Shown here: in pieces, positions 10,816 to 53,369 of the stretch
Layout: each line of letters starts with the position of its first letter
How positions within the stretch are numbered: position 1 is the stretch's first letter
Origin: Eledone cirrhosa
Lineage: Eukaryota
DNA: 64,000 nucleotides
Assembly (NCBI GenBank): GCA_964016885.1
Contig: OZ024743.1
Span: 48,608,001 to 48,672,000 of the forward strand
Direction of reading: 5' to 3'
Made by a program: the position numbers and the translations under genes
The notes under the pieces: model-generated
What the model saw: only the letters and a program-made list of their open reading frames with translations
Databases searched by the model: none
Told to the model about the DNA's origin: nothing

Positions 10816-12344
10816 CTGGAAACCAATTTATGTAAAATAGAAGCTAGATCTGTACATGTGATTCAGTATTTGCAGGAATATTATACAATCGCATCGCCAT
10901 TTTACAGTCATTCTAGACATAGACATGTAGCAAAACCACACACAATCAAAAGGTTCTCATATTCTCAACACACACTGACCTTTAACTTTACCCTCAGTCT
11001 GCCAAATGTAGATACCAATTCCTTTGTTTGAGGTAGCATTGTTGGCGTTTAGAATTGTGGCCTTTATTTAACAGGAAATTATCAAAGGCCATCTGTTTAA
11101 TGCATCTGGGTAACCCATCCTTATAAATACAAGAAATGTTGACCCCTAAAAGACTGTCAGTTTCTTCACTCTGCCATAGAATGACTTTCACTTCCAAGCT
11201 GACCAGGCAGTTCCATCCTATGTGGTCGGCTATTCGGTTCAGGCATACCAACATCAACTAAGGTTAATAGAATTCACCACTTGTAGATTCTACATTCACA
11301 CATGTGAAGTCAACCAACTTAAACACACCACAATCATACGTGTAACATCTATAAGAAAAGACCTTTGCATTATTAATCATTGCACATGATTTGGGAGTAA
11401 ATCATGCAACCAATAAAAACATAGAAATTAGTAGTGTCTTGTTCATATGTAAATTCATATCAATGTGGTGGGGAAAACCATTTTCCCTGCAGCAATATTA
11501 CATCACCACAACAATTGACTACCTACAACCTTTGGTTTCATTGACCTTGGTAATATTTCACAGCAACAATTCTCTCAACTCTCTAAGACACTTCACTCAC
11601 TTGTCATGGACTTCACCAACAAACCATTCATTCAACTTCGTCACAACTCCTACTATAATACCATAAATGAACTAAGCAGACAAACATTCACCTGCTAAAG
11701 TTATCCCATCTTCTTAAGGATATACAGAACTACATTATCTGCATCCTGTCCTTACATAAGTCAGACTTGTATTTCAAGCAAGTTGACAATGCATAAGCAT
11801 CTGATCATATAAGTATTGTTTTGAATGGTTTAGTGTGGAGATATAGGTAGTCCCTTAGAGAGTGATGTGATTGATGGTTGCCATCTAGTTTCAAAATAGA
11901 AGGGTCAGAGCGATCATTCCCATAGTGGTCGATATTGACCCTCCACAAGTTGATAGGATTATCCAGAGGGTTCTTTGAACTTTTGAGCCAAAACTTGCTA
12001 TTTGTATAAGAAATGAAAATATGTAATACAATAAAATATGACTTGCTAATACAGGTTTCAGATTTATATATAGCTAGCTCGGGATTTGCTCTAGGGTTCT
12101 TATATATTTGATATATATTTATCCTTATCGACCCTCGTGAAATAAATACATTTGTTTATATTTTGTTATTGTGTATGCAAAAATATCTGTACACGAATAT
12201 ATAATTATATATATATATATATTAAAATAACAGATTAAAGTTTAAGCAAAGAATTGTTGCTTTCACCCTTAACGGGATCTTCTGAAACTAAAAAAAATCA
12301 ATCTGTGAACGCAGAAGTAAATATTTCGAAAAACGTTACACACT

Positions 12345-13469
12345 ATCATCATCATCACCGTTTTACGTCCGTTCTTCCACGCTAGCATGGGTTAGACGGG
12401 TTGTCCTGTTGTGGGCAGTGTCTGGTCGGCTGACCATGCCTTGCTCATACAGGAACTGATTTGGCTTGATTTCTACAGCTGGATTCCCTTCCTAACACCA
12501 ACCTCATTTACAGTGAGTGCTGGGTGCTTTTTCGTGGCGCCTACACGTCCACTTTACAGTGTGGGCTGGGTGCTTTTTTGCCGTGGCACCTCCACGACCA
12601 CCTTGCGGTGGGGGCATATTGTCTATATGCTTCAGCTTGTACCCATGGGAGGTCGGGTACTCTGTATTACTGCGTGACACCAGAAGTCACGGTCGTGTGT
12701 CATTGCCTTTGAGAGGTGTAATTGGGTAAGGTCGGCTTTTATCACCTCATCCCAGGTCATCTTGGGTCTCTCCACTCCGCGGTTGCCATCAACTTTTAGT
12801 GTTCTGCACCTTTTTATGCAGCTGTCATCCTTCATACGCATCACATGTCCATACCAGTGCAACCGCCTCTCCTGCACACAGCATTTGATTCCTCTTATGT
12901 TCAGTCTCTCTCTCAATTCATTTATGCTTTGTCGTTCACGTATATTACTGTTACACATCCATTGGAGCATGCAGGCTTCCTTTCTCTTTAATCTACGTAA
13001 GTCTTCCACCTTCAGCGCCCAGGTCTTACTACCATGCAACATTGCTGTTCGGATACACGCATCATACAGTCTGCCGTTCATTCTGAGGGAGAAGCCTTTT
13101 GCAGCTAGCAGTGGTAGTAGTTCCCTAAACTTCTTCCATCCCGTTCTTACCCTAGTTATTGTACTTTCTGAGCACCCACCTCCGTTGCTAATTCGGTCAC
13201 CTAGGTAGCAGAAGCTGTCTACTGTTTCTACAGAGCCCTTCCAGAGATTGGTGGTACTTGTTTCTTGTGGCTGTTTGCTGCTTGCTGTCCCAGCACAGCT
13301 GCTGCATGTGAAGCCTACATTCTTAATTAAGCTTCCTGAGATCCCGCTACATCTCTTGTGTACCCATTGTTTGCATTTGGGGCAGAGAATGGAGTTCCTA
13401 CCTACACCTTTCCTACATACTGAGCAAGGCCATTTCCCTGAGGGGATCTGGGTTCTGTTTTCTCGTCTA
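12345..13469 (-). mobile_element. RTE LINE family B, 3' half (PHD, RT thumb, C-terminus, 3' UTR, tail)
   Basis: ORF 12632-13081 (GRLYDACIRTAMLHGS...LHWYGHVMRM) is collinear with the family-B copy at 51638-52738. Confidence 0.92.
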
Positions 13470-13479
13470 TATATATATA

Positions 13480-13595
13480 TACGGCCATATCACGCTGAAA
13501 ACACCGGTTCTCATCCGATCATCGAAGTTAAGCAGCGTAGAGCCTAGTTAATACTTAGATGGGTGACCGCTTGGGAACCCTAGGTGCCGTAAGCA
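13480..13595 (+). rRNA. 5S rRNA sequence (nearly full length, first ~3 nt missing) fused to the 5' end of an RTE LINE; probably not an independent 5S gene
   Basis: TACGGCCATATCACGCTGAAAACACCGGTTCTC...CCGATC..CGAAGTTAAGCAGCGTAGAGCCTAGTTA.TACTTAGATGGGTGACCGCTTGGGAACCCTAGGTGCCGTAAGCA. Helix I is TACGGC/GCCGTA, box A lies at ~13526 and box C at ~13556. No T-run terminator follows. Confidence 0.92.
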
Positions 13596-16500
13596 TTAAA
13601 AAGGACCAATCATAAGTCAGCGGCCTATGCTATCACTTCTTCTGGTTGCTTTTCATATGATGGATGGACTAGGGGATTCTGGAGAGTCTGAAAAATCTGG
13701 ACACTCAGTGATAAAGACAAATTCACCTCATGCTGCCGGACGAAAAGGCAAGGACTCCTCCTCTTTATTTCGGCCGCGGATGGCCAACATAACCCCAACC
13801 CCATCCCCCTCACCTCTCCCCGCGCCCCACTGTCCCCACCCACCAAACGCAACCCAAAACTTCAGAGTTGGTACCAGGAATGTAGGCACCTTAAAAGGTC
13901 ACTCTAACGAGGTTGTAGAAGTGCTTGAGCGTAAGGAGGTTGATGTTTGCTGTATCCAAGAGACCAGGTGGAGGGGTGGGTCTGCTAGATTCATTGTGGG
14001 TAAAAAACGATGCTATAAGCTTTTCTGGGTGGGAAACGACAATGGGCTGGGTGGGGTAGGAATCATGTTAGAAAAATGGGTGGATAAGATAATAGACGTA
14101 AATAGAGTGAACGACAGAATAATTAAAATAAGACTTGTCCTAAATAGAACTACTGTGACAGTAATATCTGCGTACGCACCCCAATCCGGACTGCCTGGCG
14201 TTATAAAAGACAGATTCTATGAGACATTGATGCTCACTACCTCCCAAATAACCAACAGTGACTACATAATTATTGCTGGCGACCTAAATGGTCACGTTGG
14301 ACAACATTGTGATGGCTATGACGGAATCCATGGAGGCTATGGGTTTGGTACTAGAAATGAGGAAGGCTCCAGAATCCTGGAATTCTGTGATGCAAATAAC
14401 CTATCTGTAACACTAACTTCAAAAAACGAGACAATCACCTGATCACCTATAGATCCGAGGAACACGCCAGTCAGATAGATATATCCTTACCAGAAGACGT
14501 GACAGAGTGTCTGTTGTAAACACTAAATCCCTCCCCCATGAAGAATGCACCCCCCAACATAGACTCATAGTCAGGACAAGACATACTCGACAACAGAGGA
14601 GGACTATCTTCAGGAGAAAAATATGGAAGCTAAAGGACCCCACAGCCAGTAATAAATTTATAAGCATATTACTTGATGCTTTTGGCAGTAAGGAAGAGCA
14701 ATTAGAGTCGTACAATATAGAGGAACAGTGGGAATTCCTGAAAGATAACCTGCTGAAGGCGGCAGATGAAGTCTGTGGCTGGAGCAGACCTATAGGCAGG
14801 AGGAGAGTAACATGGTGGTGGAACAGTAAGGTGGAGGAGTCAATTAAGGCCAAAAAGCAGGCTTGGAAAGTATGCTGGGATGGGGATTAGAGAAGACTAT
14901 CAAGTGGCCAGGAGGGAAGCTAGGAGACAAGTGTACTTCACAAGAAGGGAAGCAGAGGAAAGAAAGTTCAAGCATGTTCTACAACGCGAGGACCAAAAAC
15001 GGGAAGTGTTCAGGATTGCTAGGCAATGTGTCAAGGAAAACCGTGATATTGTCGGAGATAAGTGTGTCCTTAATGATGATGGTGCACTTGCCATCACTGA
15101 CGCTGATAAGAAGGTAGCTTGGAAGTGTCACTATGAAAGGCTACTAAATGAGGAGAATAAATGGGAGAAAGACAGTCTCCCCCACATCGATCCAGCAGTG
15201 CTAGTTGAAGGTAGTATAATAAGTAAGGCAATCAAAGATATGAAGACGGGTAAGGCAGCTGGGCCTTTGGAAATAGTTGCTGAAATGCTGAAAGCATCTG
15301 GAACGGTGGGACACACTATGGTCACCCGGATAGTAAACCAAGTCATACAGAATGGGGTCGTTCTGAAGGACTGGCGTAGCAGCAGCATCATTAACTGCTA
15401 CAAGGGTAAAGGAGATGCCCTAGATAGGGGTAACTATAGAGGCATTAAATTAATCGACCAGGTCATGAAGGTCACAGAAAAAGTAATAGCGCAACTAATC
15501 AGAGAGCGAATTGATCTAGATGAAATGCAGTTCACGTTTGTGTCAGGTAAAAGTACCACAGATGCTCTTTTCATTGTACGACAACTACAGGAGAAGTACC
15601 TAGCTAAAAGTAAACCCCTATACTTAGCTTTTGTTGACTTGGAGAAAGCCTTTGACAGAGACCCCGTTCCATTATCTGGTAGGCTCTTAGAAAACTAGGT
15701 GTTGATGAATGGCTTGTGAGAGCTATACAAGCCATGTATAAAGAAACAGTCAGCAGGTTAGAATTAACAACGAATATAGTGAAGAGTTTAGTGTAAAAGT
15801 TGGTGTTCATCAGGGCTCTCTTCTTAGCCCCCTACTATTTATTATTGCCCTTCAGGCTATAACAGAGGAGTTCAAGACCGGCTGCCCATGGGAACTCCTA
15901 TACGCAGATGATCTAACGCTCATAGCTGAATCAATGGCCGAACTAGAGAAGAAATTCCAAACATGGAAGCATGGCCTAGAATCAAAAGGCCTTAAAATTA
16001 ACCTGTCTAAGACTAAAGTTCTAGTTTGTAGGAAGGAAAATAGGGCACCGGTCCCATCTGGGAAATGGCCATGCTCAGTGTGTAGGAAAGGAGTAGGCAG
16101 AAACTCCATTTTATGTCCCAAATGCAAAGTATGGGTGCATAAAAGATGTAGTGGGATCACAGGTAAGCTAACTAAGAATATAGATTTTATATGTGGGCGG
16201 TGCTCTGGTGCAATAAGAAGCAGCAAGTGCCCACAGAATACTAGCTCATTCCATTGCACAGATGGTTCTATAGAAATAGTGGACACCTTCCATTACCTGG
16301 GTGACAAAATCAGCAGTGGTGGAGGGTGCTCTGAAAGTACAGTAGCTAGAGTCAGAACGGGATGGAAAAAGTTCAGAGAGCTTATACCACTATTGGCCGC
16401 TAAAGGGTTCTCTCTAAAAATGAAAGGCAGGCTGTATGATGCCTGCATACGAACAGCAATGTTACATGGCAGTGAGACTTGGGCATTGTGTGCAGAGGAT

Positions 16501-17113
16501 ATACGCAGACTGAAGAGGAACGAAGCTTGCATGCTCCGCTGGATGTGTAATAGTAATATACGTGAACGGCAAAGCATAAACGAACTAAGGGAAAAATTAG
16601 AAATAAGAGGGATCAGATGTTGTTTACTCGAGAGATGGCTACGTTGGTATGGTCACGTGATGCGCATGAAAGACGACAGCTGTATAAAAAAGTGCAGGGC
16701 GATAAAAATAGACGGTAGCCACGGAGTAGGCAGACCCAGAAAAACCTGGGACGACTTGATAAATTCCGACCTCACACACTTACACCTCTCCAAGACAATG
16801 TCACTGGACCGAGATCTTTGGTACTACACAGTAATACAGAAGACCCGCCTTGCCTAAGTACAAAGTGAAACCTACAGTCAGTAGGCACCTCTAACAAAAA
16901 TACACCCCCACCCCATTCAATGTAAAGTTATGTTGGTACCACAATATCCAGTCCGAAACAAATGAGGTCGTGTAGGTGTCACGACAAAAAAACACACAGT
17001 CCACGCTGTAATGTGGCCTTGTAGGTAACACGGTAAAAATCTCCCAGTCCACACTGTAAACGTGGTTGGTGTTAGGAAGGGCATCCCGCCGTAGAAAAAA
17101 ACCCGCCAGACAG
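13596..17113 (+). mobile_element. Near full-length RTE-clade LINE, family A copy A1 (APE endonuclease, RT with PHD insert), frameshifted and 3'-truncated
   Basis: APE motifs: VGTRNVGTL, CIQETRW, ISAYAPQ, AGDLNGHVG. Linker: TWWWN. RT motifs: NYRGIKL, FVDLEKAFDR, HQGS..SPLLF, LLYADDL, YLGDKI. The RTE-type C-terminus reads LRWYGHVMRM..GRPRKTW. ORF pieces: 13627-14442, 14507-14890, 14880-15698, 15934-16857. Confidence 0.95.
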
Positions 17114-17249
17114 ATCGCTAAATCGCCTAATGCGGTCCTTAGGGCAGGACCATAAGTATTACATGTGTAAAGTTTGAAAACAATTGGTTGGGTGGTTCTC
17201 GAGTTTTAGTGAGCTGACAGACAGACATTCTCTGTTTTAGATATATAGA
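17114..17249 (-). mobile_element. Probable 5' end of a non-autonomous Helitron
   Basis: The minus strand starts A|TCTATATATCT followed by (TGTC)n, resembling Helitron-derived repeats. Confidence 0.4.
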
Positions 17250-17609
17250 TTAATCTTTAATGCATAATCATTTCATATTCTGTTGATTAATTTACTTATT
17301 AATTTTTGTATGTGCCTGGGGTTGATAATGAGTCAAAGATTCTAGGAAAGGCTCGATGATCTAGAATATTTATAGACGATCCTGCAATAGACTATCTGGT
17401 CTGAGATATACAATGAAGTGAAATGATCATGACTGCTCAACAGCAATAGCAACGTGGGTGACAAGTGAATTCCAGAAGACTGACGTACTGGGGCAGTATC
17501 TCATATTAGTAAGATTTTACATGTCATGTCTTGTACAAAATTAGTATGTTATGAGCAGCCAGATTAACAGGAGCAGAAGACACTAAATTCTGTAAATTGT
17601 CAGGTGAAG

Positions 17610-17932
17610 ACCCGACCCCCCACAGGAACAAGCCGAAGCTGAAGCATATAGACAATATGCCCCCACTGCAAAGTTGTTGTGGAGGTACCACGGCAAAAAA
17701 GCACCCAGCCCACACTGTAAAGTGGATGTGTAGGCACCACGGAAAAAAGCATCTAGCACTCACTATAAATGAGGTTGGTGTTATGAAGGGTATCCAGCTG
17801 TAGAAATCAAGCCAGAATCAGTTCCTGTATGAGCAAGGCATGGTCAGCCGACCGGACACTGCCCACAACAGGACAACCCGTCTAACCCATGCTAGCGTGG
17901 AAGAACGGACATAAAACGATGATATGATGATG
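17610..17932 (+). mobile_element. RTE family B 3'-UTR fragment
   Basis: Nearly identical to the reverse complement of 12345-12660, with a (GAT)n tail. Confidence 0.85.
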
Positions 17933-18099
17933 TCAAGTATAAATATATCATCATCACCATTTAAAGTCAATTTTTCCATGCTAGAATGGGTTAGACAAGT
18001 TGTCCCATTCGAGGCAAGTCAGGTCAAGTGACTGTGTTTTGCTCATACAGAACTGTTTCTGGCTTGGTTTTGATGGCTGGATGCCCTTCTTAATGCCAA

Positions 18100-18410
18100 C
18101 CACATTTACAGTGTGGACTAGCTACTTTTTATCACGGCATCAAAACAATCACTTTACAGTGTGGGCTGGGCACTTTTTGTCGTGTCACCAACACAACTAT
18201 TTTATAGTGTTGACTGGGCTCTTTTTGTCGTGTCACCAACACAACTATTTTATAGTGTTGACTGGGCTCTTTTTGTCGTAACACCAACACAACTATTTTA
18301 TAGTGTTGACTGGGCTCTTTTTGTCGTAACACCAACACAACTATTTTATAGTGTTGACTGGGCGCTTTTTGTCATGGCACCAAAATTACCACTTTACAGT
18401 GTGGACTGGG
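18100..18410 (-). repeat. 48-bp tandem array (~6 units) expanded from an RTE 3'-UTR subrepeat, within fragment 17948-18410
   Basis: Unit TTTATAGTGTTGACTGGGCTCTTTTTGTCGT(G/A)(T/A)CACCAACACAACTAT. The ORF track shows 16-aa periodicity. Confidence 0.9.
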
Positions 18411-19239
18411 GGAAAGGATGTGTGTATAAGGATGTGAGTGGGGGTGGGTGGGGTGTTATCATTATTATTTTTATCAGAGTTCTAGTCTGACAGTTATATG
18501 TATGTACACACTCATCATCATTTTATGTCTGTTGTTCCATGTTTGCATTGATTGGATGGGTCCTTTTTGGTACAGCATCTCTTCAGTTGTTACATTCTTT
18601 TGCCATCTCTTCCGTGACCTATAGCAATCTGATATCAGCTCACACTACTTCCATCCAGGTCTTCCTCTACTGCAGCTTCCTTCCACTGGGATTTCCAGCA
18701 ATCATCATCCATGTGAATCACCTGTCCATACCAATGCAGTACTAATCTTCTGCACACTACTTCTGATTCCTTTTCTACCCAGTTTCTCACTCAGTTCATC
18801 CATGCTTTGTCTTTCTCCTACATTATTTTGCACATCTATCAAAGCATACTTGTCTCATTTCTCTCCAGTTTTGTATGAGCAAGACAAGGTCAGCCGACCG
18901 AGCATTTCTCACAACGGGACAAATCCTCTAACCCATGCTAGCGTGGAAAAATGTAGGTTAAACGGTGATGATGATGGTCTTACAAGTTTAAAACTGGTAA
19001 ATCCCAATCTCTCTATATTTATATATACATAGTTAAAAATGAAACTAACGAATATAAAAAATATATAAATTTGGCTTTCTTGAATTATCCAAATGTTTTG
19101 TTTTCGCATTAATACATCTAAATTATCTCAATATGTTTCTCCCCCTCCACTAGTACACATGCTTTTAAAATTGAGTTATTTTTACATATCCAAGAAGCAT
19201 TAATTTTATTTTGTGTGTAAGGCTGAAAATTTCACATGT

Positions 19240-19745
19240 AAATTGCAGGAGCTGGTGCAGAAGTCTGCCTGCTTCAGCATTTGGTAATCAGAAAAGGGGA
19301 GGTAGTTGTAAAAGCCAAACTCTCTATTTTCAATTCGGTATTCATACCAACCCTTACCAATGGTCATGAATCTTGGGTAATGACCAAAAGAATACGATCA
19401 CAAATAGAAGTGCCTGAAATGGGGCTCCTCCAAACGGCCTTTGGAGTAATGTTACTCGATAGAGTGCATCGTTCAGTGATCAGAGAGATGCTACTTCTCC
19501 AAATTGAAAGATCACAACTTCGATACTATGAGCATATGGATAGAATGTCTCAAGAAAGAATCGTTGGACAGATTTTATGGACAAAACTAACTGGCGGTAG
19601 ACCCCCAAAAAGATAATAACATTCATGAGCTTGGCTGGCCACGACTTGGGATCCAGCCAGATCAGTTGGAAATGATTGCATCTAACAGGACCTACTGGAA
19701 GGTCTGAGGATTCTGCCCCAACGACCAAGGAAGAGGAGGTAATTA
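19240..19745 (+). mobile_element. Expander/Rex3-like RTE 3' fragment
   Basis: KAKLSIFNSVFIPTLTNGHESWVMTKRIRSQIEVPEMG...LLLQIERSQLRYYEH. Confidence 0.85.
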
Positions 19746-19944
19746 CGCTAAAACGAAACTTATTCATTTCGTTTATTTAAGAAAGAAAGTTATTTTTTAC
19801 ACTGCCCTTTAGTGTTAGTTTCATTTTTAATCAGTCACGTTATTAATTTTGATCCATGCATAGTAATATCGATTATATTGCCTGGCAATTGCTTGATGAC
19901 AAAACACTTCTGAAAAGAACTGATCAGAGCATACAAATTAGTTA

Positions 19945-21480
19945 ATCAGTATCGGTAGAGGGTCGGACGCCATGCTTTCCAGCATAGTTACGTCCCTTTA
20001 TGATCTTAGTTCAAATCCCGCCGAGGTTGACTTTGCCTTTCATCCTTACAGGGTCGATAAAATAAAGTACCAGTCATGCACTGGGTAATTGCTGGCCTTG
20101 TGCCTAAAGTAGAAACAATTATTTAGGCAAACAAAGGGCGATGGATTGGCAGTATTTGTAGAGGGTCGTACGCCATGCTTTGCAGCATAGAGTTACGGCC
20201 CCTTATGGTCTAAGTTCAAATCCCGCCTTTCATCCTTACGGGGTCGATAAAATAAAGTACCAGTAATACACTATGATAATTGCTGGCCTTGTGCCAAAAG
20301 TAGAAACAATTACTTAGACAAACGTATCCAGGACCATGCGTATATATATGTATGTGTGTGATAAACTTAGGAAAATTAACAAAGAGAGGACAAGACAATT
20401 AACGAAAATAAGGCAAAATGAAAAATATTTTTTAAGGGGAAAACCACGGAAGACTACAGACTCACGGGTCTTTGAGATGTACTTTGGCAATTTCAACCCC
20501 TGCCACGGTACTGCTGGTTCGATCGGGGTCACAGCGTCTGACACAAGTCAAAACGCTGTCCGTGGAGTAAGAGACTAGAAAAAACAATAATTTATAATAG
20601 TTAAACTATAATATGTATACATTCAATTTATGTGACGTCAAGGAAAACGTATTGTACTTTATATAGCACGGGAGTCTCATGAGTGAAACAAAGGAGAAAA
20701 AAGAAGAATAGGATGGGAAAAGGGCAAGAAGAAGAAAGTAAGATATCGTGTTAAAAAATGTGAGCCATTGAAATTAATGGAGGGAGAAAAGAGAATACGT
20801 TCGTCACAGATTAGTAATGACAAACTTAGGAAAATTAACAATTTCTTTTTTGTACAACAACATGGAATAACATAAGAAAACTTAAATTAGACCATTTTTG
20901 CTATGTTTATTTAAAAAGACCATGTCAACATTTAGAATCCTGCAACAGTTTGCGCGTTCCAGATAAGCCAACTCCATAACCTTGTTGGTGTTATTTCACC
21001 TCAATTAAGGGCGGTGAATTGGCAGTATCGGTAGAGGGTTGGACGCCATGCTTTCTAGCATAGTTACGTCCCTTTACAGTCTGAGTTCAAATCCCGCCGA
21101 GGTTAACTTTGCCTTTCATCCTTACGGGGTTGATAAAATAAAGTACCAGTAATGTACTGAGTTATTGATGGCCTTGTGCCAAAAGTGGAAACAATTATTT
21201 TCAGTTAATCAGGGCAGTGAATTGGCAGTATCGGTAGAGGGTCAGACGCTTTGCTAAAGTAGAAACAGTTATTTCACCTCAATTATATCGCTGAGTCCTC
21301 TTCTGTAAATAATTGTTTCTACTATTGGCACAAGGCCAGCAATTATTCAGTACATTACTGGTACCTTATTTTATCGACCCCGTAAGGATGAAAGGCAAAG
21401 TTAACCTCGGCGGGATTTGAACTCAGAATGCGTCAAAGCATGGAGTCTGACACTCTACCGATGCTGCCAATTCACCAATG
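19945..21480. mobile_element. Cluster of five copies of the tRNA-like SINE (four plus, one minus)
   Basis: Repeated TGGCAGTATCGGTAGAGGGTCGGACGCCATGC...GTTCAAATCCCGCCGAGG...GCCTTTCATCCTTACGGGGTCGATAAAATAAAGTACCAG. Confidence 0.85.
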
Positions 21481-22449
21481 TGAGTTTGTTTCTATGTAAT
21501 CAATGATTTAGCCAATCGATTAATTTCAATATGCTAAGCACAAGGGAAGTAAGTATAAAAAAAATAAACTCCTCCGAATTAACTCCCTTGTAAAGCTATT
21601 CATTTTCGATCTTCTAATTTAAATCTAATATTCATATGATATCTATTTAAAAGCTATTCAAAATGGTTTTTCTTCGGACAAAAAAAAAAGCTACAACAAA
21701 AACCATATATAATAAACAGTATAAAGGATATTTTGTGTCTGCTTTCTTAAAATTAACGTTGCGTGTTTTTATGCACATGTATTGTTCCATTCCTTAATGT
21801 TTTCATTTGCTGGTTTATGTTTGTAGTTGATTAAATGTCAAGCTTTCCAACTTCATGTCGATGATAAATAATATCAATCAGGATGTCAGATATTCTACAG
21901 CAAAGCAATAGGATTCCTACAACTATAAATTGCAGGGGTTGGAGGAACGAATTTGTCATCAATATAAGCGAAAACATTAAAAATGTGTATTATTGACAAA
22001 GTTACGAAGAAACTCAGTCAGAGGGGAACACTAAACTGTAGCTATGGCCATATGTTTATTACCAAGTACAATTATATACTCGTGTGAGAAACTTTTAAAA
22101 AGTAATAATGTAACTAAACTAGATGGAATAACCCATACTTTTAGAATTAAATTAACTGCTGATTTATCAAACACCGGTTTTATACAATCGGAAGTTTACT
22201 GGAAAGACGTCACATTGAAGACATCTGGCTAACCAGTTTATAACGTCACTTCCTTCTAAAAACAACTGTATTGAGTTTAATTCAGAAGGAAAGCATAAGA
22301 GGTATCACTCACTGACAATCCAAAAAAGGCGTACGGACAAGGTTACGCGTATAAACAAAGCACAACCTACAGCTATAAATATACTCAATGTTCAGATGTT
22401 TGAAACAGATTTATTCGTACTAGAAAATTATTTTACTTTTAAGTATTTT

Positions 22450-23990
22450 AATGGACGCTGCACACCAGGTCCGAAATCACTGTCATCGCCTCCATCTCTC
22501 TCACCCTCCCCATCTCTCTCTATTATGAGCAAATGGGGCCCCACGACAAAATGGAGAAGGCGTTTCCTCGGAGGATGGTAAGGGAAATGTGCTGGAAGAG
22601 CCTTTCCATATCGCGAGACTCGCACCTGCGGCTAGCCAGCTCAGCACCTATGGTAAGTAGTGAGGTAACCCTAGAGCCAAGAACACTAGAAATCTCCACT
22701 GCTAGGGGCTCGACTGCAAACCTGTCGGAGAGTTTACCTTCCTCAGTTGCAGACTAAACCAGGTTATCGTTGGAGAATGTGTCTTCCGAGGGGAAGATGG
22801 TCATACCGTCTGGCCTTTTCCATCCCCACAGGCTTGAGCTGGGAGGGGAAGTCCACAGCATCCAAGCCATGCTTTATGACCTTGTTGAGGGCAGCATGGC
22901 GTGGAAGGCGGCCGGCACTGTAGCAACAGGAAAACGATTGGAGGCTGAAAGAGTCCACTGGATCCGCAGTGACATTTGTGTGCCTTGCAGATCCGGTGGC
23001 CAAGCCTCAGGGAGATCCCAATGCGCAGGCTATCGTTGTCCAGCTGCGTGCCAGTGGAGAAGGAGAGTCAGGCATGAAGTCAGGTACCACTGAGGAAAAC
23101 ATGCAAAGCGGTGCTGGTCAAGTTGGCGCGCTAGCTTGTCTGAGGCCAGGTTGCATTGGATGGCATCCCAAATAATCTGGGAGACTCAACGTCAGCAAGG
23201 AGTGCTACGAAGAGTATACAGGAGCTTCGGCATGGCGAAGCATTTACTCGGGAAGAGCGATGGGTGGGCATCAACCATGGTCAGTCAGCTTGTGAGGGTC
23301 TTGAGTTGCTGAAGCCTAGACCTGATGGTGGAGCAGATGCCTGGCAGGTGGATTGGTAACCCGAGGATGAGGACATCCTCTTTAGGGGTCACCTGTACCT
23401 GAAGAAGAATGGACCGGATGTCTGAGATGGAAGCCACAAAACTCTCAGCATTGTGGTTGACATTCACCACCTCTGACTTGAACGAGTTGACCTGAAGGCC
23501 GATTCCCACCAGAGCAGGAACCGCCGATTGTACATCGTGACAGACGGTCTCCACGGGCCTGCCCAACGTAGCATCATCCAGGTACCAAACATTGAGGGGG
23601 GGGGGCTGTGATACTCCAAGCAATGTGGTCTATACCAAGAGCAAATAGGAGGAGGCTAAAAGGGTCACCCTGTTGGAACCCAGTGGATGAAGGTATGACT
23701 GTATCAGCAGCAAGGAGCATGCTCAGGGCTCCATATGACGAGTAGGCAGAGGGGTATTGGCTGAGGCAGGCCTCGAGCAGATGGTCACGGCATTGGCAGT
23801 TAAAGGCATTCCTTATGTCAAGCTTGACAATGAGGTGCCTGAAGTCCCTGGATACCGGTTCCGGTGGGCAGCTATTGAAGAGCTGCCCCTCACAACCACC
23901 ATACACGCTGACACTCAGTTACACCGGGCTGAGCTCCTCGCCCAGTTCAGGTGTGATGGACCAGGGTGCCATGGATAAACCAGCTCATAG
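22450..23990 (-). mobile_element. CRE-like non-LTR retrotransposon remnant (RT plus restriction-like endonuclease region)
   Basis: VKLDIRNAFN, GFQQGDPFSLLLFALGI, VWYLDDATLG and RHAALNKVIKHGL; frameshifted. Confidence 0.75.
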
Positions 23991-24404
23991 GTTATTTCAA
24001 TGAAATATAACTTCAATAGTGTTAGAAAATATATTTTTTCTTCTAGCTACATGTTAGAGAACCATGCTATTGCATTACAGCTATCTATATGTGTAGTTCT
24101 TTTTTTAAGAAAGAGGCTATATTGCTGATCCTGGTAAAATAGACCCCCAGGCTATTTTCATATATCCCAAAATTGTTGGCCTTGTGCCTAAATCAGAAAC
24201 CATTATTATGAAGGCAGGTAATGTTAAAACATGGTTTAACGCAGTTTATTTATTTTCACCAATTATTAAGACAATTTAAACACTTACCCTAACCCTCACC
24301 CCATTCATATTTATATTTACGGGTAAGATGAGCTTAACTATAAATAGTCTGTCGTTAGAAATATGCTGATTAAAGAATTATGTCAGAAATTAAAATATAT
24401 GTTG

Positions 24405-24700
24405 GTTACAACATCCAGTCCAAACTAATGAGATCGAGATCATGTAGGTTTCACGACAAAAAACACACAGTTCACACTGTAATGTGGTTGTGTAGGTAAT
24501 GGTAAAAAAAGCTCACAGTCCACACTGTAAATGTGGTTGGTGTTAGGAAGGGCATCCAACCGTAGAAAACCTGCCAGATAGTCCTATACGAGCGAGACAC
24601 GGTCACCCGACCAATCTTGCCTCAAGTGGGACAACTCCCGTCTAACCCATGCTAGCGTGGAAGATGGATGTTAAACGACGATGATGATGATGATGATGAT
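24405..24700 (+). mobile_element. RTE 3'-UTR fragment with (GAT)n tail
   Basis: Reverse-complement match to 7469-7760. Confidence 0.85.
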
Positions 24701-24759
24701 ATTAAAAGCAAACAAAGAACGTAGTCAACGCCAAATTCAATGAATTTGATGTTAAAGGT

Positions 24760-25980
24760 GCTATTTGCATCCTTTGCTCAGTGCACTACTGATTCACTCA
24801 ACCGACTGAGTAAGAAACCTCCTCTGGCCCCTCCAGATGACCACTTACATTGGCCCAATCCACCAGGTTATTTACAACCCGCCTTCACCAAAGATAACGT
24901 GGATTCTGGTGCAGGGATTGATGGTCTACGACCTCAGCACCTCAAGGATGGTGTCTCCTTGAGTTCTTGGAGAACCTCACCCAGTTCATAAACCTGTTCT
25001 CGACCAAGAGTGTCCTCCCTTATACTCACCCCCTGTTCTTTGGGGCTAAACTGTTTGGCCTCACAAGGCCCAAGCTGGGCTGTGAGACTGCTGCTCACGC
25101 CACCGGAGCATTTATCAACTTGCCTTTTGAAACCAAGGTTATCTTCAAGCTAGATCTCAAGAATGCTTTCAATTCCATCAATTGGGATGTCATTCCTGAG
25201 ATCTAGCTTGAAGGTAACCTTGATGAATGCTTTACCACATTGCTTGGCAAGCTTATCATGAGTCCTCTTACTTATCCTTTGGTGATCCACTTGGTCCTGC
25301 TCAGTTCACACTGGGCATTAATGATGTCACCAAGACAGGAGTTGATCTAGATTTGAATGTCTGGCATCTGGATGATGCTTGTTTGAGGGGTCTTCCAAAA
25401 AAGTCCTTGCAACCGCAAAGACGATGATAGAGGAACTGGGTCGTAAGGGCCTTCATGTCAACAGTTGCAAATGTGAGCTCTGGCTCATGAACCACCGAGC
25501 TTCACATCAGCTGACTTGACCTGTTTACTGATTCCTTCCCCTCTATTGTGGTTTCTTCCTTGGAGCCCCAATTATTGACCAACCTATCGAGTCAATTTTT
25601 CGATCTAAGTTGGTTAACCTCGAGTAACTTTTAATAAATCTCAAAGTCAGTGAGTCTCACCAAGGTTTTTATACTTAGGAATTACTTGTCAATTCCTAAG
25701 TTGCTGTATTTCATCAGAGTTAGTCCCTCTCACAGATTTTCGTTGTCTGGTCAATGTCAGACTCTCTCCAGAGTCCCACGAACAGGCTACCTTTCCCAAA
25801 CAGTTTAAAGGTCTCAGTTTATGTAAATGCTTGTCTTTGTCTCTACCTTGCTCCCCTTTAGTGGGTGACATCCTCTCCTTTCCAACATGGACTAGTTCTA
25901 CCAGGGAGATGGATGAAGCTTTACTACAGTGGAAAGAATTGGGCTTGTCTGTTGTATGGCTGCAGCCTAACAGCTGAAAC
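24760..25980 (+). mobile_element. Second CRE-like retrotransposon remnant
   Basis: SGAGIDGLRPQHLKD, PLFFGAKLFGL, GCETAAHA, KLDLKNAFNSI, GDPLGPA and VWHLDD. Confidence 0.75.
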
Positions 25981-26509
25981 AAGTAATTTCCAATAAAGAT
26001 AATTATAAAAAGAAAGTGTGTCCATGTTCAAATAAAAAATTAAAAAAGGAATTCATAGTTTTTGTTCATTTAGCAACCCATGTGAGTGGAAAAACAGACA
26101 AAAATGATGATGATTTTGCTGAGAACATATTTATTGCTTTACTATGCCCATCACCAACAATTAAAAGTTTCATTACTATAAACCCTTTTGATACTAAAAT
26201 GACCCTGGCTTTACAATACAAAACTTTATTTTAAAGAGTTTAGCATTATCATCGTCTATCATAATTCTATGCAAAAGCCTTAAATTATTTCCCCGAAACC
26301 AGTTTACTGATGAGAAAGTTAGTTATATTACCAAATGTTTCAAAGCGATTTGAAAAAAATCATAGACAGTCTTTCATGAGAACTATGGTAACAAAATGGT
26401 TAATGTATTGAAATGTGGAAAAGGAAAGTCTATTGGAGCCATTTCTTTCCAGCTATTTATTACAGCTGGAAATTAGACTCCACATAACAGTAGCTTATCA
26501 TTATCAAAA

Positions 26510-26654
26510 ACACAACTACCTTAGAAACATGAAACAAACCACCCATACCAGGACATACCCATACTAAGATGACTGTACCCTAGGAAAGACAATAACACAA
26601 CTACCTTAGAAACACGAAACAAACCACTCATACCAGGACATACCCATACTAAGC
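26510..26654. repeat. Direct duplication (~59-bp matches, 86-bp period)
   Basis: ACACAACTACCTTAGAAACA.GAAACAAACCAC.CATACCAGGACATACCCATACTAAG occurs twice. Confidence 0.85.
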
Positions 26655-26759
26655 ATTAGAACACCACTCACCTAGAACCCAAATGATAAATCATCATCTT
26701 AACCCTTTTGATATGTTTTCAAAATAATCAAAATTTAAAAGAAATTTATTAATATAACT

Positions 26760-27255
26760 AAGAATAAAGATAGGATGGAAAAAGTTTAGATAACTGCTCC
26801 CACTGCTTACAACAAAAGGAAGGCTGTATGACACCTGTGTAAGGTGTGCAAAACTGCATGGTAGTGAAACATTGGCTGTGACAGCAGAGGACATGCGTAG
26901 ACTGGAGAGAAATGAAGAACCATGTTTCATTGGATGTGCAATGTAAGTGTGAGAGAAAGGCAGAGCTTGGACGAGCTGAGAGAGAAGCTGGGCTTAAGAG
27001 GAATCTGAGGTGTGCAGGAGAGAAGACTGTGTTGGTATGGGCATGTGATGTACATGGACAATAACTGATTGATGAAGAAGTGCCAGGAAGTCGCAATAGA
27101 GGATGACCAAGAAAGAGGTTGTGAGAACGGACCTCAAATCACTAAAACTGGTAGAGGAGATGATGAAGAAGCAACAAGTGGACAGATGCTGAGAAGGACC
27201 TGTTCAACCCATGCAAGAATAGAAAAGCGTCCGTAAAAACAATGATGATGATGAT
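26760..27255 (+). mobile_element. Older RTE 3' fragment
   Basis: GWKKF, LHGSETLAVTAEDMRRLERNE and WYGHVM, plus a (GAT)n tail. Confidence 0.8.
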
Positions 27256-27329
27256 AAAACTTTGCTTTGTACTACAGGCAACCTGAACATAGAATCAGTA
27301 ACACTGTCTCCAATATGAACACCTCCTTA

Positions 27330-27888
27330 TTCATCATCACTGTTTTACATCCGTTCTTCCACGCTAGCATGGATTAGATGGGTTGTCTTGTTGTGGGCAG
27401 TGCCTGGTCGGCTGACCTTGTCTAGCTCATATGGGGACCCCAGTCCTATCATCTCATTTCTACAGCTGAGTAAACTGGAGCAATGTGAAATAAAGCATCT
27501 TTGCTCAAGGAAACAACACATCACCAATTGAACTCACAACCTTTCGATTGCCATGTATGTATATATATTATATATATATATATTATATATATATATATAT
27601 ATATAATATATATATATATCATCATCATTTCATTTTACGTCCGCTTTTTCCCTGGCTTGATTTCTACAGCTGGATGCCCTTCCTAACACCAACCTCATTT
27701 ATAGTGAGTGCTGGGTGCTTTTTTGCCGTGGCACCTCCACGACCTCATTTCTACAGCTGAGTAAACTGGAGCAATGTGAAATAAAGTGTCTTGCTCAAGG
27801 AAACAACACATCACCCAGTCTGAGAATTGAACTCACAACCTTTCAATTGCAAGGCCAATGCTCTAACCACTAAGCCCCATGTGCCTCC
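27330..27888 (-). mobile_element. Rearranged copies of the CORE-like tRNA SINE with RTE-B tail, interrupted by (TA)n
   Basis: Matches the reverse complement of 37877-38200 with deletions. Confidence 0.75.
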
Positions 27889-27919
<31 letters not shown>

Positions 27920-27936
27920 ATATATATATAATATAT

Positions 27937-28701
27937 ATCATCATCATCATCATCGTTTAACGTCCATGTTCCACGCTTGCATGGGTTTGGACGGGAGTTT
28001 TCCCACTTGAGGCAAGAGTGGTTGTCATTGCTCACATAGGACTGTCTGGCGGGTTTTCTACAGCTGGATGCCCTTCCTAACACCAACCACATTTACAGTG
28101 TGGGACTGGGAGGTTTTTACCGTGTTGCCTACACGGCCACATTACAGCGTGGACTGTGTGTTTTTTGTCGTGACACCTACACGATCTCATTTGTTTCGGC
28201 CTGGATGTTGTGGCACCAACATAACTTTATATTGAAAGGGGCGGTGTGGATGGGCTGGGGATGGTGGGACGGGGGAGTATTTTGTTAGAGATGCCTACTG
28301 ACTGTAGTAGGTTTTACTTTGTATTTAGGTAAGGCGGGTCTTCTCTATTACTGAGTACCGCCAAAGATCTCGGTCCAGTGACATTGTCTTGGAGAGATGT
28401 AAGTGTGTGAGGTCGGAATTTATCAGGTCGTCCCAGGTTTTTCTGGGTCTGCCTACTCCGTGGCTACCGTCTATCTTTATTGCCCTGCACTTTTTTATAC
28501 AGCTGTCGTCTTTCATGCGCATCACGTGACCATACCAACGTAGCCATCTCTCGAGTAAACAACATCTGATCCCTCTTATTTCTAATTTTTCCCTTAGTTC
28601 ATTTATGCTTTGCCGTTCACGTATATTACTATTACACATCCAGCGGAGCATGCAAGCTTCGTTCCTCTCTAGTCTGCGTATATCCTCTGCACACAATGCC
28701 C

Positions 28702-28703
<2 letters not shown>
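27937..28703 (-). mobile_element. RTE family A 5'-truncated copy flanked by (TA)n
   Basis: ORF 28325-28696 is nearly identical to the C-terminus of A1. The 3' UTR and (GAT)n tail are complete. Confidence 0.93.
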
Positions 28704-28748
<45 letters not shown>

Positions 28749-28749
28749 A

Positions 28750-28790
<41 letters not shown>

Positions 28791-28888
28791 TATATATATA
28801 TATATATATATTATATATATTATATATATTATATATATATATATATATTATATATATATATATATTATATATATATATATTATATATA
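28704..28888. repeat. Long imperfect (TA)n microsatellite
   Basis: Seen directly in the sequence. Confidence 0.95.
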
Positions 28889-29964
28889 TTTTGCAATGTG
28901 AGGACCAGAAACAGGTGTTCAAGATTGCGAGGCAGTGTGTCAGAGAGAATTGTCATTGGAGAGAAGTGTATCCGGAATGATAAAGGTGAGCTTGCCCTCA
29001 CAAGTGCTGAGAAGAAAGATGCATGGAAGAGTCATTATGATAGATTACTAAATGAGGAGAATGCATGAGAAGAAGAGACCCTACCCCAAGTAGACCCTAT
29101 AGAGGGGCCAGCAGTACAAGTCAGCAGCAATGTAGTAAGTAAGGCAATCAAAGATATGAAGATGGGGAAGGCAACCGGTCCATCGGGTATAGCTGCCGAG
29201 ATGCTGAAGGCATCTGGGTCTGTAGGTCACACTATAACCACACATATTGTTAACCAGGTAATACTAGAAGGTGTCATACCAAAAGATTGGTGCAGTAGCA
29301 TCATTGTCAACTGCTACAAAGGTAAAGGTGATGCACTAGATAGAGGAAACTATAGAGGTATAAAGCTGATGGACCAGGTCATGAAAGTAACAGAAAGAGT
29401 TATAGCACAGTTGATTAGGGACCGGGTGAAACTAGACGAGATGCAATTTGGGTTTGTACCAGGAAGAGGCACCACTGATGCCCTCTTCCTTGTGAGGCAG
29501 TTACAGGAAAAGTACCTAGCTAAAAGTAAGCCACTCTACCTGGCATTTGTCGACCTTGAGAAAGCCTTTGACAGAGTTCCACGTGCTGTAATCTGGTGGG
29601 CTCTTAGAAAACTAGGAGTAGATGAATGGCTTGTGAAAGCGGTACAAGCCATGTATAGGGGAGCAGTCAGTAAAGTTAGGATTAGCAATGAGTATAGCGA
29701 GGAATTTAGCGTACAGGTTGGGGTCCACCAGGGCTCTGTTCTTAGCCCCCTCCTGTTCATCATAGTCCTGCAGGCAATAATGGAGGAGTTTAAGACCGGA
29801 TGCCCATGGGAACTCCTGGATGCTGAAGACCTCGCACTTATAGCTGAATCTATGGTAGAACTAGAGAAGAAATTCCAAACTTGGAAGCAGGGACTAGAAA
29901 GAAAGGGTCTCAAAGTCAACATGACAAAGACTAAGGTCCTTGTAAGTAGACGAGAAAACAGAAC
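28889..29964 (+). mobile_element. RTE family B, RT-containing segment (5' partner of 12345-13469)
   Basis: ORF 29156-29986 carries RT motifs. It ends at TAGACGAGAAAACAGAAC, the same 18-mer at which the 12345-13469 fragment begins. Confidence 0.92.
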
Positions 29965-32879
29965 GTCTTTCATGCGCATCACGTGACCATACCCACGTAG
30001 CCATCTCTCGAGTAAACAACATCTGATCCCTCTTATTTCTAATTTTTCCCTTAGTTCGTTCATGCTTTGCCGTTCACGTATATTACTATTACACATCCAG
30101 TGGAGCATGCAAGCTTCGTTCCTCTCTAGTCTGCGCATATTCTCTGCACACAATGCCCAGGTCTCACTGCCATGCAACATTGCTGTTCGTATGCAGGCAT
30201 CATACAACCTGCCTTTCATTTTTAGGGAGAACCCTTTAGCGGCTAATAGTGGTATAAGCTCTCTGAACTTTTTCCATCCAGTTCTGACTCTAGCTACTGT
30301 ACTTTCAGAGCACCCTCTCCCGCTGCTGATTTTTGTCACCCAGGTAACGGAAGCTGTCCACTATTTCTATAGAACCCTCTGCGCAATTGAAAGAGCTAGT
30401 ATTTTGTGGGCACTTGCTGCTACTTATTGCACCAGAGCACCGGCCACATGTAAAATCTATGTTCTTAGTTAGCTTACCTGTGATCCCACTACATCTTTTA
30501 TGCACCCATACTTTGCATTTGGGACATAAAATGGAGTTTCTACCTACGCCTTTCCTACACACTGAGCATGGCCACATCCCGGAAGGGACCGGCGCCTTAT
30601 TTTCTTTCTTACAAACTAGAACTTTAGTCTTAGCCAGGTTAATTTTAAGGCCTTTTGATTCTAGGCCGTGCTTCCATGTTTGGAATTTCTTCTCTAGCTC
30701 GGCCATTGATTCAGCTATGAGCGTTAGATCATCTGCGTATAGGACATGGGCAGCCGGTCTTGAACTCCTCTGTTATAGCCTGAAGGGCAATAATAAATAG
30801 TAGGGGGCTAAGAACAGAGCCCTGATGGACGCCAACTTTTACGCTAAACTCTTCACTATATTCGTTGTTAATTCTAACCTTGCTGACTGTTTCTTTATAC
30901 ATGGCTTGTATAGCTCTCACAAGCCATTCGTCAACACCTAGTTTTCTAAGAGCCCACCAGATAATGGAACGGGGGACTCTGTCGAAGGCTTTCTCCAGGT
31001 CGACAAAAGCTAAGTATAGGGGTTTACTTTTAGCTAGGTACTTCTCCTGTAGTTGTCGTACAATGAAAAGAGCGTCTGTGGTACTTTTGCTTGACACAAA
31101 CCCGAACTGCATTTCATCTAGATCAATTCGCTCTCTGATTAGTTGCGCTATTACTTTTTCCGTGACCTTCATGACCTGGTCGATTAATTTAATGCCTCTA
31201 TAGTTACACCTATCTAGGGCATCTCCTTTACCCTTGTAACAGTTAATGATGATGCTGCTATGCCAGTCCTTCGGAACAACCCCATTCTGTATGACTTGGT
31301 TTACTATCCGGGTGACCATGGTGTGTCCCACCGTTCCAGAGGCTTTCAGCATCTCAGCAACTATTTCCGAAGGCCCAGCCGCCTTACCCGTCTTCATATC
31401 TTTGATTGCCTTACTTATTATACTACCTTCGACTAACACTGCTGGTCCCTCTATTGGGTCGATGTGGGGGAGACTGTCTTTCTCCCATTTGTTCTCCTCA
31501 TTTAGTAGCCTTTCGTAGTGACACTTCCAAGCTACCTTCTTATCAGCGTCAGTGATGGCAAGTACGCCATCATCGTTAAGTACACACTTCTCCCCAACAA
31601 TATCACGGTTTTCCTTGACACATTGCCTAGCAATCCTGAACACCTCACGTTTTTGGTCCTCGCGTTGTAGAACATGCTTGAACTTTCTTTCCTCTGCTTC
31701 CCTTCTTGCGAAGTACACTTGTCTCCTAGCTTCCCTCCTGGCCACTTGATAGTCTTCTCTAATCCCCATCCCAGCATACTTTCCAAGCCTGCTTTTTGGC
31801 CTTGATTGACCCCTCCACCTTACTGTTCCACCACCATGTTACTCTCCTCCTGCCTACAGGCCTGCTCCAGCCAGACTTCGTCTGCCGCCATCAGCAGGTT
31901 TGCTTTCAGGAATTCCCACTGTTCCTCTACCTTGTACGACTCTAATTGCTCTTCCTTACTGTCGAAAGCATCAAGTAATATGCTTTGAAATTTATTTCTG
32001 GCTGTGGGATCCTTTAGCTTCCATATTTTTCTCCTGAGGATAGTCCTCTTCTGCTGTCTAGTACGTCTCGTCCTGACTATGAGGTCGCTAATTATCAGTC
32101 TATGTTGGGAGGTGCATTCTTCATGGGGGAGGGATTTAGTGTTTACAACAGACACTCTGTCACGTCTTCTGGTAAGGATATAATCTACCTGGCTGGTATG
32201 TTCTCCTGATCTGTAGGTGATCAAGTGATTGTCTCGTTTTTTGAAGTTAGTGTTACAGATAGTTAGGTTGTTTGCATCACAGAATTCCAGGATTCTGGAG
32301 CCTTCCTCGTTTCTAGTACCAAACCCATAGCCTCCGTGGATTCCGTCATAGCCGTCACAATGTTGTCCAACGTGACCATTTAGGTCGCCAGCAATAATTA
32401 TATAGTCACTGTCGGTTATTTGGGAGGTAGTGAGCATCAGTGTCTCATAGAATCTGTCTTTTATAGCGCCAGGCAATCCGGATTGGGGCGCGTATGCAGA
32501 TATTACTGTCACAGTAGTTCTGTTTAGAACAAGTCTTATTTTAATTATTCTGTCATTCACTATTTACATCTATTATCTTATCCACCCATTTTTCTGCTAA
32601 CATGATTCCTACCCCACCTATCCCATTGTCATTCCCCACCCAGAAAAGCTTATAGCAACGTTTTTTACCCACAATGAATCTAGCAGACCTGCCCCTCCAC
32701 CTGGTCTCTTGGATACAGCAAACATCAACCTCCTTACGCTCAAGCACTTCTACAACCTCGTTAGAGTGACCTTTTAAGGTGCCTACGTTCATGGTACCAA
32801 CTCTGAAGTTTTGGATTGTGTTTGGAGGATGGGGCGCAGGGAGGGGTGAGGGGAATGAGTTTGGGGTTATGTTGGCCAT
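29965..32879 (-). mobile_element. RTE family A copy A2 (APE, RT, PHD), truncated at both ends
   Basis: ORFs 32553-32879, 31820-32560, 30729-31769, 30305-30706 and 29965-30339 are highly similar to A1. The 5' end is at the MANIT ATG, adjoining (TA)n. Confidence 0.95.
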
Positions 32880-32909
32880 ATATTATATATATATATATTA
32901 TATATATAA

Positions 32910-33575
32910 GACGATCGCTAATAAGCTTGAAACTAGTACAGCGTTCCTTTGTCAGTGTTGAACAAACAAGCAACGATGGTTGCTAAACACTACGGCTTAA
33001 TATGGGATATTTGTTTTCAAACACACCGAGCATTATAATAAATGTTCGGTGAATCCATTCGTACATATATATATGTGTGCATGTATGTATATATATATAT
33101 ACATACTACTGTACGTCTGTATACATATATGTATGTACGTGTACATACTTATATTTAAGTAACAGCCGTACTCAGAGTGGGAAATGAAATTTTGTTTCAT
33201 TTTTTCCGTTTATCGTTTTCGGTGCACCCGGCCGATTAACCCACTTGATATGCAAATTGGGCTACTCAGCCGTTAATATACATAAGGTAAGTATATATGT
33301 TCAACAATCTGGCAGGAAGGTATACGTTGCTGACGATAGCTAATAAGCTTGAAACTAGTACAGCGTTCCTTTGTCAGTGTTGAACAAACGATCAACGATG
33401 GTTGCTAGACACTACGGCTTAATACGGGATGTTTGTTTACAAACACACCGAGCATTATAATAAATGTTCGGTGAATCCATACGTACATATATATATAAAT
33501 ATGTGTGCATGTATGTATATATACATACTACTGTACGTCTGTATACATATATGTGTACATACTTATATATATATA
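32910..33575. repeat. Tandem duplication, ~420-bp period
   Basis: GACGAT.GCTAATAAGCTTGAAACTAGTACAGCGTTCC... starts at both 32910 and 33332. Confidence 0.85.
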
Positions 33576-52739: not shown

Positions 52740-53369
52740 ATATACAATATAGAGAGGAAAAACCACTGGAGAGTGTGTTTTCATTTACAGGATCTATAAA
52801 CCACTAGCGTGAAAAACATATGAGCTACGAAGGTTTGGGAAATACATTATAATTAAAAGGATAAATTAAAATGAAATAACCAACCTTATAACTAAATCAC
52901 ACATATACAGACTCACTAGGAGAATGTTTCACTATGAATTAATGAGAGGACCAATTCAGCCTATGGATCATCAGCATGTGTTAAGCCGATATGGCCCTCA
53001 TTACTGAGGAGACCTAAAATAACTATAGCATGTGTAAATGGAAAGAGAATGCATGCGTGAGGTAGTGACTAGTGGTATGAATAGACCAAGAACCCACTAG
53101 AAATGGCAGCTTATAACCATTCAATTTATAGTGCTTGACAAACGGAAACACAAGGAGCTACATATCAACTAAAGCAACGGAGAGGGAAGCTGGGTAGCCT
53201 TTCGTTGGTCTGTAGCACCTTTTGTAACCATCTGATATGGATGGCTCTATTAGCAGCATCACTGCATCGGTTGTGTCTGTAAGCCATTTAGTTGAAGATG
53301 TACCCTCTTTTAGAGTTGTTGGGGAGGGCAGATTTGTAATGCACAGACATGTCCCAGTTGGCCGCTTTC

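Follow-up and report, generated by a model that had tools for sequence, protein, structure and literature searches.

A 5S rRNA/RTE chimeric retrocopy in Eledone cirrhosa, likely formed by template switching and present in a single copy

U6 RNA occurs in chimeras with LINEs of the L1, L2 and RTE-like groups (U6/RTEX-2, U6/L2) as well as with SINEs, and the account of Doucet et al. (2015, PMC4476161) attributes them to template switching. For the human genome, a LINE-1 chimera census reports 5S rRNA in 10.5 % of 253 chimeras, with the 5S often in antisense orientation and truncated at around nt 46 or 90 (10.1101/2025.02.02.635956). Template switching has furthermore been proposed by Kojima to add small-RNA heads, and 5S-headed SINEs derived from RTE elements are listed in the same accounts (PMC5786205, PMC4494074).

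The locus described here lies in a window of 64 kb, i.e. the whole stretch of Eledone cirrhosa DNA that was analysed, and is another case of the known U6/LINE-type class of template-switch chimeras. In our reading, to which we assign a probability of about 0.85, it is a single 5S rRNA/RTE chimeric retrocopy that likely arose when the RT jumped from the 5′ UTR of a LINE onto a 5S RNA at its 3′ end, both parts being inserted together. Work of Bibillo and Eickbush from 2004 is said to describe such behaviour for the R2 RT, which reportedly jumps end-to-end, leaving one RNA at its 5′ end and resuming at the 3′ end of a second RNA with which it needs no homology; by analogy, the same type of jump may be proposed for the RT of the LINE family concerned here (family A).

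As in the published account of the U6/LINE chimeras, a small Pol III RNA lies in sense orientation at the 5′ end of a 5′-truncated LINE or SINE, the junctions are unique and several LINE clades are involved; U6 capture itself also occurs in the E. cirrhosa genome. What differs from that account is the captured RNA, which is 5S, and the genome, which is that of an invertebrate; in addition, the 3′ tail and the flanking TSD of our locus were disturbed later. With the human 5S/LINE-1 chimeras, as the census describes them, our locus shares the lack of self-propagation and, probably, the co-insertion of 5S with a LINE, but of the 57 E. cirrhosa copies that are anchored at the 5′ end of the 5S, 52 extend to nt 115 or further, all 62 partners are sense (among the matches listed) and the 5S often has a read-through or oligo(A) 3′ end. 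The SINE3, CoeSINE5 and HaSE3 elements also carry a 5S head on RTE-derived sequence and have been proposed to originate by template switching (PMC5786205). According to that source they are amplified families of fixed structure, whereas the junction of our chimera is single-copy and most of the ORF region is kept.

The initial annotation of this DNA had recognized a nearly complete 5S rRNA with intact box A and box C, joined directly to the 5′ end of a LINE. The 5S itself is confirmed by a match to Rfam RF00001 at 13477–13595 (104.5 bits, E = 7.7e-22), the sole Rfam match in the window, of which 13480–13595 are true 5S letters; nt 1–3 are absent and a (TA) run stands in their place (Table 1). 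Both boxes, whose limits we presume from Xenopus numbering, are present, but each carries one change relative to the array gene on C14 (+59 in box A and +81 in box C), the full set across nt 4–119 being seven substitutions (also +37, +46, +75, +106 and +119). An array-type upstream flank was sought 5′ of this 5S and is absent, the upstream DNA being another retroelement, and ARAGORN found no tRNA genes in the 64-kb window. The 5S does adjoin the LINE; however, TTAAAAA stands between them and the LINE is truncated inside its 5′ UTR. Judged from its letters, this linker probably consists of two U from the 5S 3′ end followed by oligo(A). Such an oligo(A) is found neither in the 5S array genes, which continue with TTTAT or TTTAA and then long T runs, nor in the LINE, whose native letters at this position are ATTATTATTT.

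Table 1. Coordinates of the chimera, its insertion host and neighbouring features (positions within the window)
Feature	Position	Strand	Evidence or remark
3′ half of older RTE-type element (family B), insertion host	12344–13469	−	83 % to family-B copy 51638–52740; PHD match
18-bp TSD, left copy, GTTCTGTTTTCTCGTCTA	13452–13469	+	single-copy in intact family B, at 51638–51655
(TA)5 filler at 5′ junction, in place of 5S nt 1–3	13470–13479	+	sequence
5S rRNA retrocopy, nt 4–119	13480–13595	+	Rfam RF00001 match, 104.5 bits
Box A; IE; box C	13526–13540; 13543–13548; 13556–13573	+	within 5S retrocopy
TTAAAAA linker	13596–13602	+	between 5S and LINE
RTE-type LINE, family A, truncated 5′ (inside 5′ UTR) and 3′	13603–17113	+	Pfam Exo_endo_phos, RVT_1, PHD
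3′ part of unrelated repeat	17114–17250	+	adjoins LINE end
5′ half of family-B host, inverted relative to 3′ half	28890–29946	+	sequence comparison
18-bp TSD, second copy, inverted	29947–29964	−	16.5 kb from left copy; host continues there
Second family-A copy, equivalent to 13780–16675, no 5S	29964–32879	−	94.9 % to left copy

The LINE contains Pfam domains in the order endonuclease, RT and PHD-like finger, and family A shows a single-ORF layout with an AP endonuclease and RT, a short N-terminal extension preceding the endonuclease and no separate ORF1. Among the named homologues of its endonuclease, the best comes from Octopus bimaculoides (63 %) and is labelled ‘craniofacial development protein 2-like’, a label that we take to be typical of RTE/BovB endonucleases. 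A (TGA)n 3′ tail occurs in 11 of the 18 other family-A copies with a located end and is missing from the chimera. Domain order, tail and homologue label together suggest that family A is an RTE-type LINE. The copy in the chimera is 94.0–96.4 % identical to 14 other family-A copies and, at 3.5 kb, compares with 58–382 nt in the other 11 RTE partners of 5S. It stops around 100 nt short of the family tail and abuts the middle of an unrelated repeat, to which it was probably joined by a deletion with AG microhomology.

The description of this LINE as ‘autonomous-type’ could not be upheld, as its ORF is broken into four pieces free of stops, which occupy three frames (13600–14439, 14453–14887, 14811–15695 and 15742–16854), and its 3′ tail is gone; the copy is dead. 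An in-frame ATG had also been pointed out behind the 5S. The ATG at 13627 is indeed in the endonuclease frame here, but this is owed to a copy-specific deletion of 1 nt at 13654: its equivalent is out of frame in 4/4 other read-through copies (L094, L097, L106 and L110), in which the frame passes through ATG-ATG (13657–13662 in chimera coordinates), and the extra base at 13654 is also present in related DNA runs. Among the pieces listed for four contig runs, none spanned the 5S–LINE joint, a result that has no bearing on the junction or its expression.

A single 18-bp TSD had been thought to enclose both 5S and LINE. The 18-bp duplication is real, but its second copy is inverted and encloses the two parts only via an assumed inversion of 16–19 kb. 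Since the host resumes at the duplicated 18-mer, which has minus orientation there, the two halves of the family-B host are mutually inverted. The second TSD copy abuts the equivalent of 16675, an internal position, of the second family-A copy, which on sequence comparison is the likely inversion partner. The two local family-A copies have rare alleles in common at 16593–16641, although between 13977 and 16464 the right one retains the alleles of its own lineage; a clean crossover between them was sought, and a short shared tract with a few alleles in 50 nt was found. Alternatively, the inversion may have occurred via the (TA)n tracts at 13470 and 32880, which are self-complementary, in which case the TSD would be that of the other copy. 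Because the chimera is not directly flanked by the TSD and has lost the LINE tail, co-insertion at this locus is argued from the inversion model and from the sister cases elsewhere in the genome. A 9-bp match, GATCGCTAA, located behind 17113 and at 32912, was considered as a second TSD and rejected, both sides being parts of unrelated repeats.

Under the template-switch reading, the LINE RT would have come to its template's end, or fallen off, inside the 5′ UTR, and would have resumed synthesis on an oligoadenylated 5S RNA whose free 3′ end was UU-A5, the A5 of the linker probably being the RNA tail or else bases added by the RT. The cDNA, without the first three 5S bases, would have been joined to the target with (TA) filler, 5S and LINE thus entering as one event and being enclosed by the 18-bp TSD. 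A later ectopic exchange near 16470–16675 with the inverted second family-A copy could then have turned the interval round and carried the second TSD to its present place, and later deletions would have removed both 3′ ends.

A single template-switch chimera had been the second option of the initial annotation, and it agrees both with the uniqueness of the junction and with a genome-wide pattern of which this locus is part. We examined 81 dispersed 5S copies (among the matches listed, the chimera locus included), which were picked by near-exact 5S matches, so that old or fragmented copies are under-counted. Array loci (L056–L060, L091, L092 and L124), duplicate records of one locus and secondary inverted matches in L111 and L144 were left out, and L145, with two opposed 5S copies, was counted twice; the 5S genes themselves stand in arrays on C4 and C14 and have long T terminators. 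Among the matches listed, 62 of the 81 dispersed copies have the start of a retroelement at most 45 nt behind the 5S, always in sense orientation, i.e. SINE1 in 23, a CR1-like 3′ tail in 15, SINE2/2b in 12 and RTE in 12. Repeating the search with a TA-free library again gave 62 sense and 0 antisense partners, while control windows contained a partner in 23 of 162 cases (11 sense, 12 antisense). For the other 19 of the 81 copies (among the matches listed) no library partner was found within 45 nt. Head-to-head antisense partners upstream of the 5S, like those in human chimeras, were not evident either, upstream matches occurring at 10 of the 81 copies (among the matches listed).

With 57 distinct linkers among the 62 chimeras and a unique junction at our locus, a shared 5S-body structure of the SINE3 type was not found. 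Support for joint insertion comes from the SINE1 cases, 13/23 of which have repeats of 9–27 bp around 5S and SINE, directly behind the SINE tail (3.3 % in a mismatched-pair control). No TSD was found behind the tails of the RTE or CR1-like chimeras, where short repeats are hidden by the (TA)n flanks; (TA)4 or longer stands upstream of 25 of the 81 dispersed 5S copies (among the matches listed).

The 3′ ends of the captured 5S are informative as well. Among the matches listed, 76 copies have an intact 5S 3′ end, followed by an array-type trailer (15), a TTTAC trailer (23), oligo(A) (19) or other sequence (19), and just one of the 81 dispersed copies, L047, has an array-type 5′ flank. Considering these trailer and oligo(A) linkers together with the near absence of array-type 5′ flanks, the dispersed 5S parts derive from RNA. 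A source gene of the 5S variant with TTTAC trailer and A81 was sought in the genome and not found. A 3′-extended pre-5S produced by read-through of the first terminator is described for Xenopus (PMC11277228), and by analogy an RNA of this kind would fit the 5S trailers in the linkers. Linkers with oligo(A) are found in 14 of the 23 SINE1 chimeras vs 3 of the 39 others (Fisher P = 1e-5), which may mean that different RTs prefer different acceptor 3′ ends.

A junction of this kind might also result from two successive insertions, i.e. an A-tailed 5S processed pseudogene with the 18-bp TSD came first and the LINE later entered its tail. A TSD of the LINE itself would be expected at its 3′ end, which our copy has lost, and L081, in which a (TA)n tract parts the 5S from a long sense RTE piece, may be such a sequential case. 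We nevertheless consider this unlikely for our locus, as sequential insertion would give both orientations, whereas the partners are sense in 62 of 62 cases (binomial, 4e-19). Moreover, family-A ends lie mostly in (TA)n tracts, of which there is none at the chimera junction, and partner-free 5S with poly(A) is rare, with just L038 and L115 among the matches listed, whose ends by eye resemble the SINE1 tail stub.

An origin at the RNA level, in which 5S was ligated to a fragment of LINE RNA, as proposed for U6/L1 via RtcB, and the product then retrotransposed, appears a little less probable again. RtcB requires its first RNA to carry a 2′,3′-cyclic or 3′ phosphate and its second RNA a 5′-OH, while an oligo(A)-tailed 5S ends in a 3′-OH and Pol III SINE RNAs of full length have a triphosphate at their start. 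In addition, 31 of the 35 tRNA-SINE partners begin within 9 nt of the SINE 5′ start, a figure that is partly circular for SINE2/2b, whose library starts came from chimeric copies. Compatible with ligation is that the 5S–LINE junction is without microhomology, and the human census states that sense chimeras result from ligation as from template switching (10.1101/2025.02.02.635956).

The first option of the initial annotation, that family A as a whole has captured a 5S gene as its promoter, did not survive. That the family, or a young subfamily of it, is a 5S-headed LINE using 5S as an internal Pol III promoter could be suggested by the near-complete internal promoter, the 5S end without terminator and the absence of T5 over 3.5 kb, and RTE-derived SINEs with 5S heads are listed in the cited account (CoeSINE5, HaSE3; PMC5786205). 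Many loci with the identical junction had been predicted for this case, but the pattern ‘5S end, at most 30 nt, LINE start’ matched only the chimera locus in the 3.0-Gb genome, vs 122 matches for the exact native LINE junction. When 13480–13760 was searched against the genome, the 39 other sequences among the best 40 matches all began at query positions 123–127, i.e. at the LINE start, and no 5S was found within 1.5 kb at any of 29 other top family-A loci (0/29). Other copies have a different 5′ end, namely a T-rich 5′ UTR of their own that extends around 430–680 nt beyond the chimera's LINE start in 16 of 18 copies (the two longer values are matches of TA repeats) and contains T5 in the native 5′ region of 15/18. 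Although the junction pattern was searched by exact matching, which a diverged daughter might escape, BLAST-type genome searches revealed no daughter copies of the chimera either. The 5S–LINE chimera is single-copy and has no daughter copies.

The sense strand of the LINE indeed has no T5, and the first of its seven T4 runs lies at 13650–13653, 55 nt past the 5S, as the initial annotation had read it. Absence of T5 over 3.5 kb is, however, unremarkable: 500 simulations with a first-order Markov model give P = 0.47, as chance would predict, and 11 of 18 other family-A copies likewise have none behind the same point. T4 can terminate metazoan Pol III transcription, and from its sequence the chimera is predicted to yield at most short Pol III transcripts that stop at the 13650 T4. 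Together with the broken ORF and the lost tail, these data make a 5S-promoted family A very improbable; the locus, a dead chimera in single copy, gives no demonstration of a Pol III-promoted LINE. No report of a 5S-promoted autonomous LINE was found in the open-access literature, and Kojima describes non-LTR retrotransposons as Pol II-transcribed (PMC10886601).

Site-specific insertion of the LINE at the 3′ end of a genomic 5S gene, as in Mutsu-like targeting, can practically be dismissed: while L047 also has a SINE directly behind its 5S, the 5S of our chimera lacks nt 1–3 and has another retroelement instead of gene flanks upstream, family A or B sequence is absent from nine array loci and the other family-A copies are situated away from 5S.

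Beyond the single locus, the genome of this one invertebrate offers a countable set of full-length sense 5S captures, together with those of U6, over insertions of RTE, CR1-like elements and SINEs; 8 of the 16 dispersed U6 copies outside the U6 array have the same partners. The proposed first step in the birth of SINE3 is thereby seen repeatedly, without amplification. The pattern differs from that of human 5S/L1 and yields testable predictions on the RNA 3′ ends used by non-L1 RTs; no report of such a 5S capture pattern in molluscs was found in the open-access literature. It is tempting to speculate, at slightly less than even odds, that 5S is a leading landing pad onto which at least three machineries (the SINE1 mover and those of RTE and CR1-like elements) switch templates, that the chimeras form a fossil record of 5S 3′-end intermediates (read-through trailers and oligo(A)) with RTs preferring different acceptor 3′ ends, and that terminator-free 5S-A(n)-SINE/LINE joints, the present one among them, are raw material for SINE3 families.

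A 66-nt partner, ‘S3’, was considered as the tail of a 5S-headed SINE3, a view that was rejected; these letters form the 3′ end of a LINE that we take to be CR1-like by its motifs, and 5S was found at 0 of 20 unselected copies. An exact 24-mer of the CR1-like tail has 2693 copies in the genome, and four chimeras in the set carry it. With 4 chimeras among 2693 exact tails, and 1 vs 122 at the LINE position, capture of 5S is rare per insertion.

Among the chimeras that join a dispersed 5S rRNA copy to the 3' tail of the CR1-like LINE, the LINE part begins at one preferred position, 60-66 nt from its 3' end, in 13/15 cases. The CR1-like LINE itself shows a 5'-truncation hotspot at this distance (L207-L226), where 6 of 20 unselected copies begin.

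The dispersed 5S copies also differ from the 5S gene arrays within box C, i.e.: position +81 is A in most of them (53/66 ungapped copies), whereas all array genes sampled carry G, and a donor gene type for the A variant was not found. One 5S gene array (L092, G000:C14:42.77 Mb) is made up of alternating, inverted units and harbours SINE1 copies in its spacers.

Further joints were seen at other loci. In L081, 5S is followed by a (TA)n spacer and then by a sense-oriented RTE piece that is 1.4 kb or more in length and 75% similar to family A, which makes this locus a candidate second long 5S/RTE chimera. An inverted 5S piece is fused to a 5S copy in L111, L144 and L145, and these joints have the look of a fold-back or twin-priming-like structure. 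Two U6 copies (L181 and L188) share one short 3' tail with an AATAAA motif, which had no match in the repeat library used for the partner search. U6 genes lie in a tandem array of at least 32 genes with a period of about 1.8 kb (L152-L179, G000:C19:31.78-31.84 Mb).

Within the window, the interval 13470-32909 probably reflects a 16-19 kb inversion between two opposed family-A copies, both of which lack their 3' ends; the interval splits a family-B element. Three family-A copies (L100, L096 and window 29964-32879) have a mosaic structure, in which stretches near the equivalent of 15800-16460 belong to a divergent subfamily. Both RTE families contain a Pfam PHD-finger match, C-terminal to the RT core and within the single ORF.

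PHD-finger matches in the two RTE families (window coordinates)
Family	Position	Strand	E-value
A	16070-16205	+	6e-6
B	12632-13486	-	9e-7
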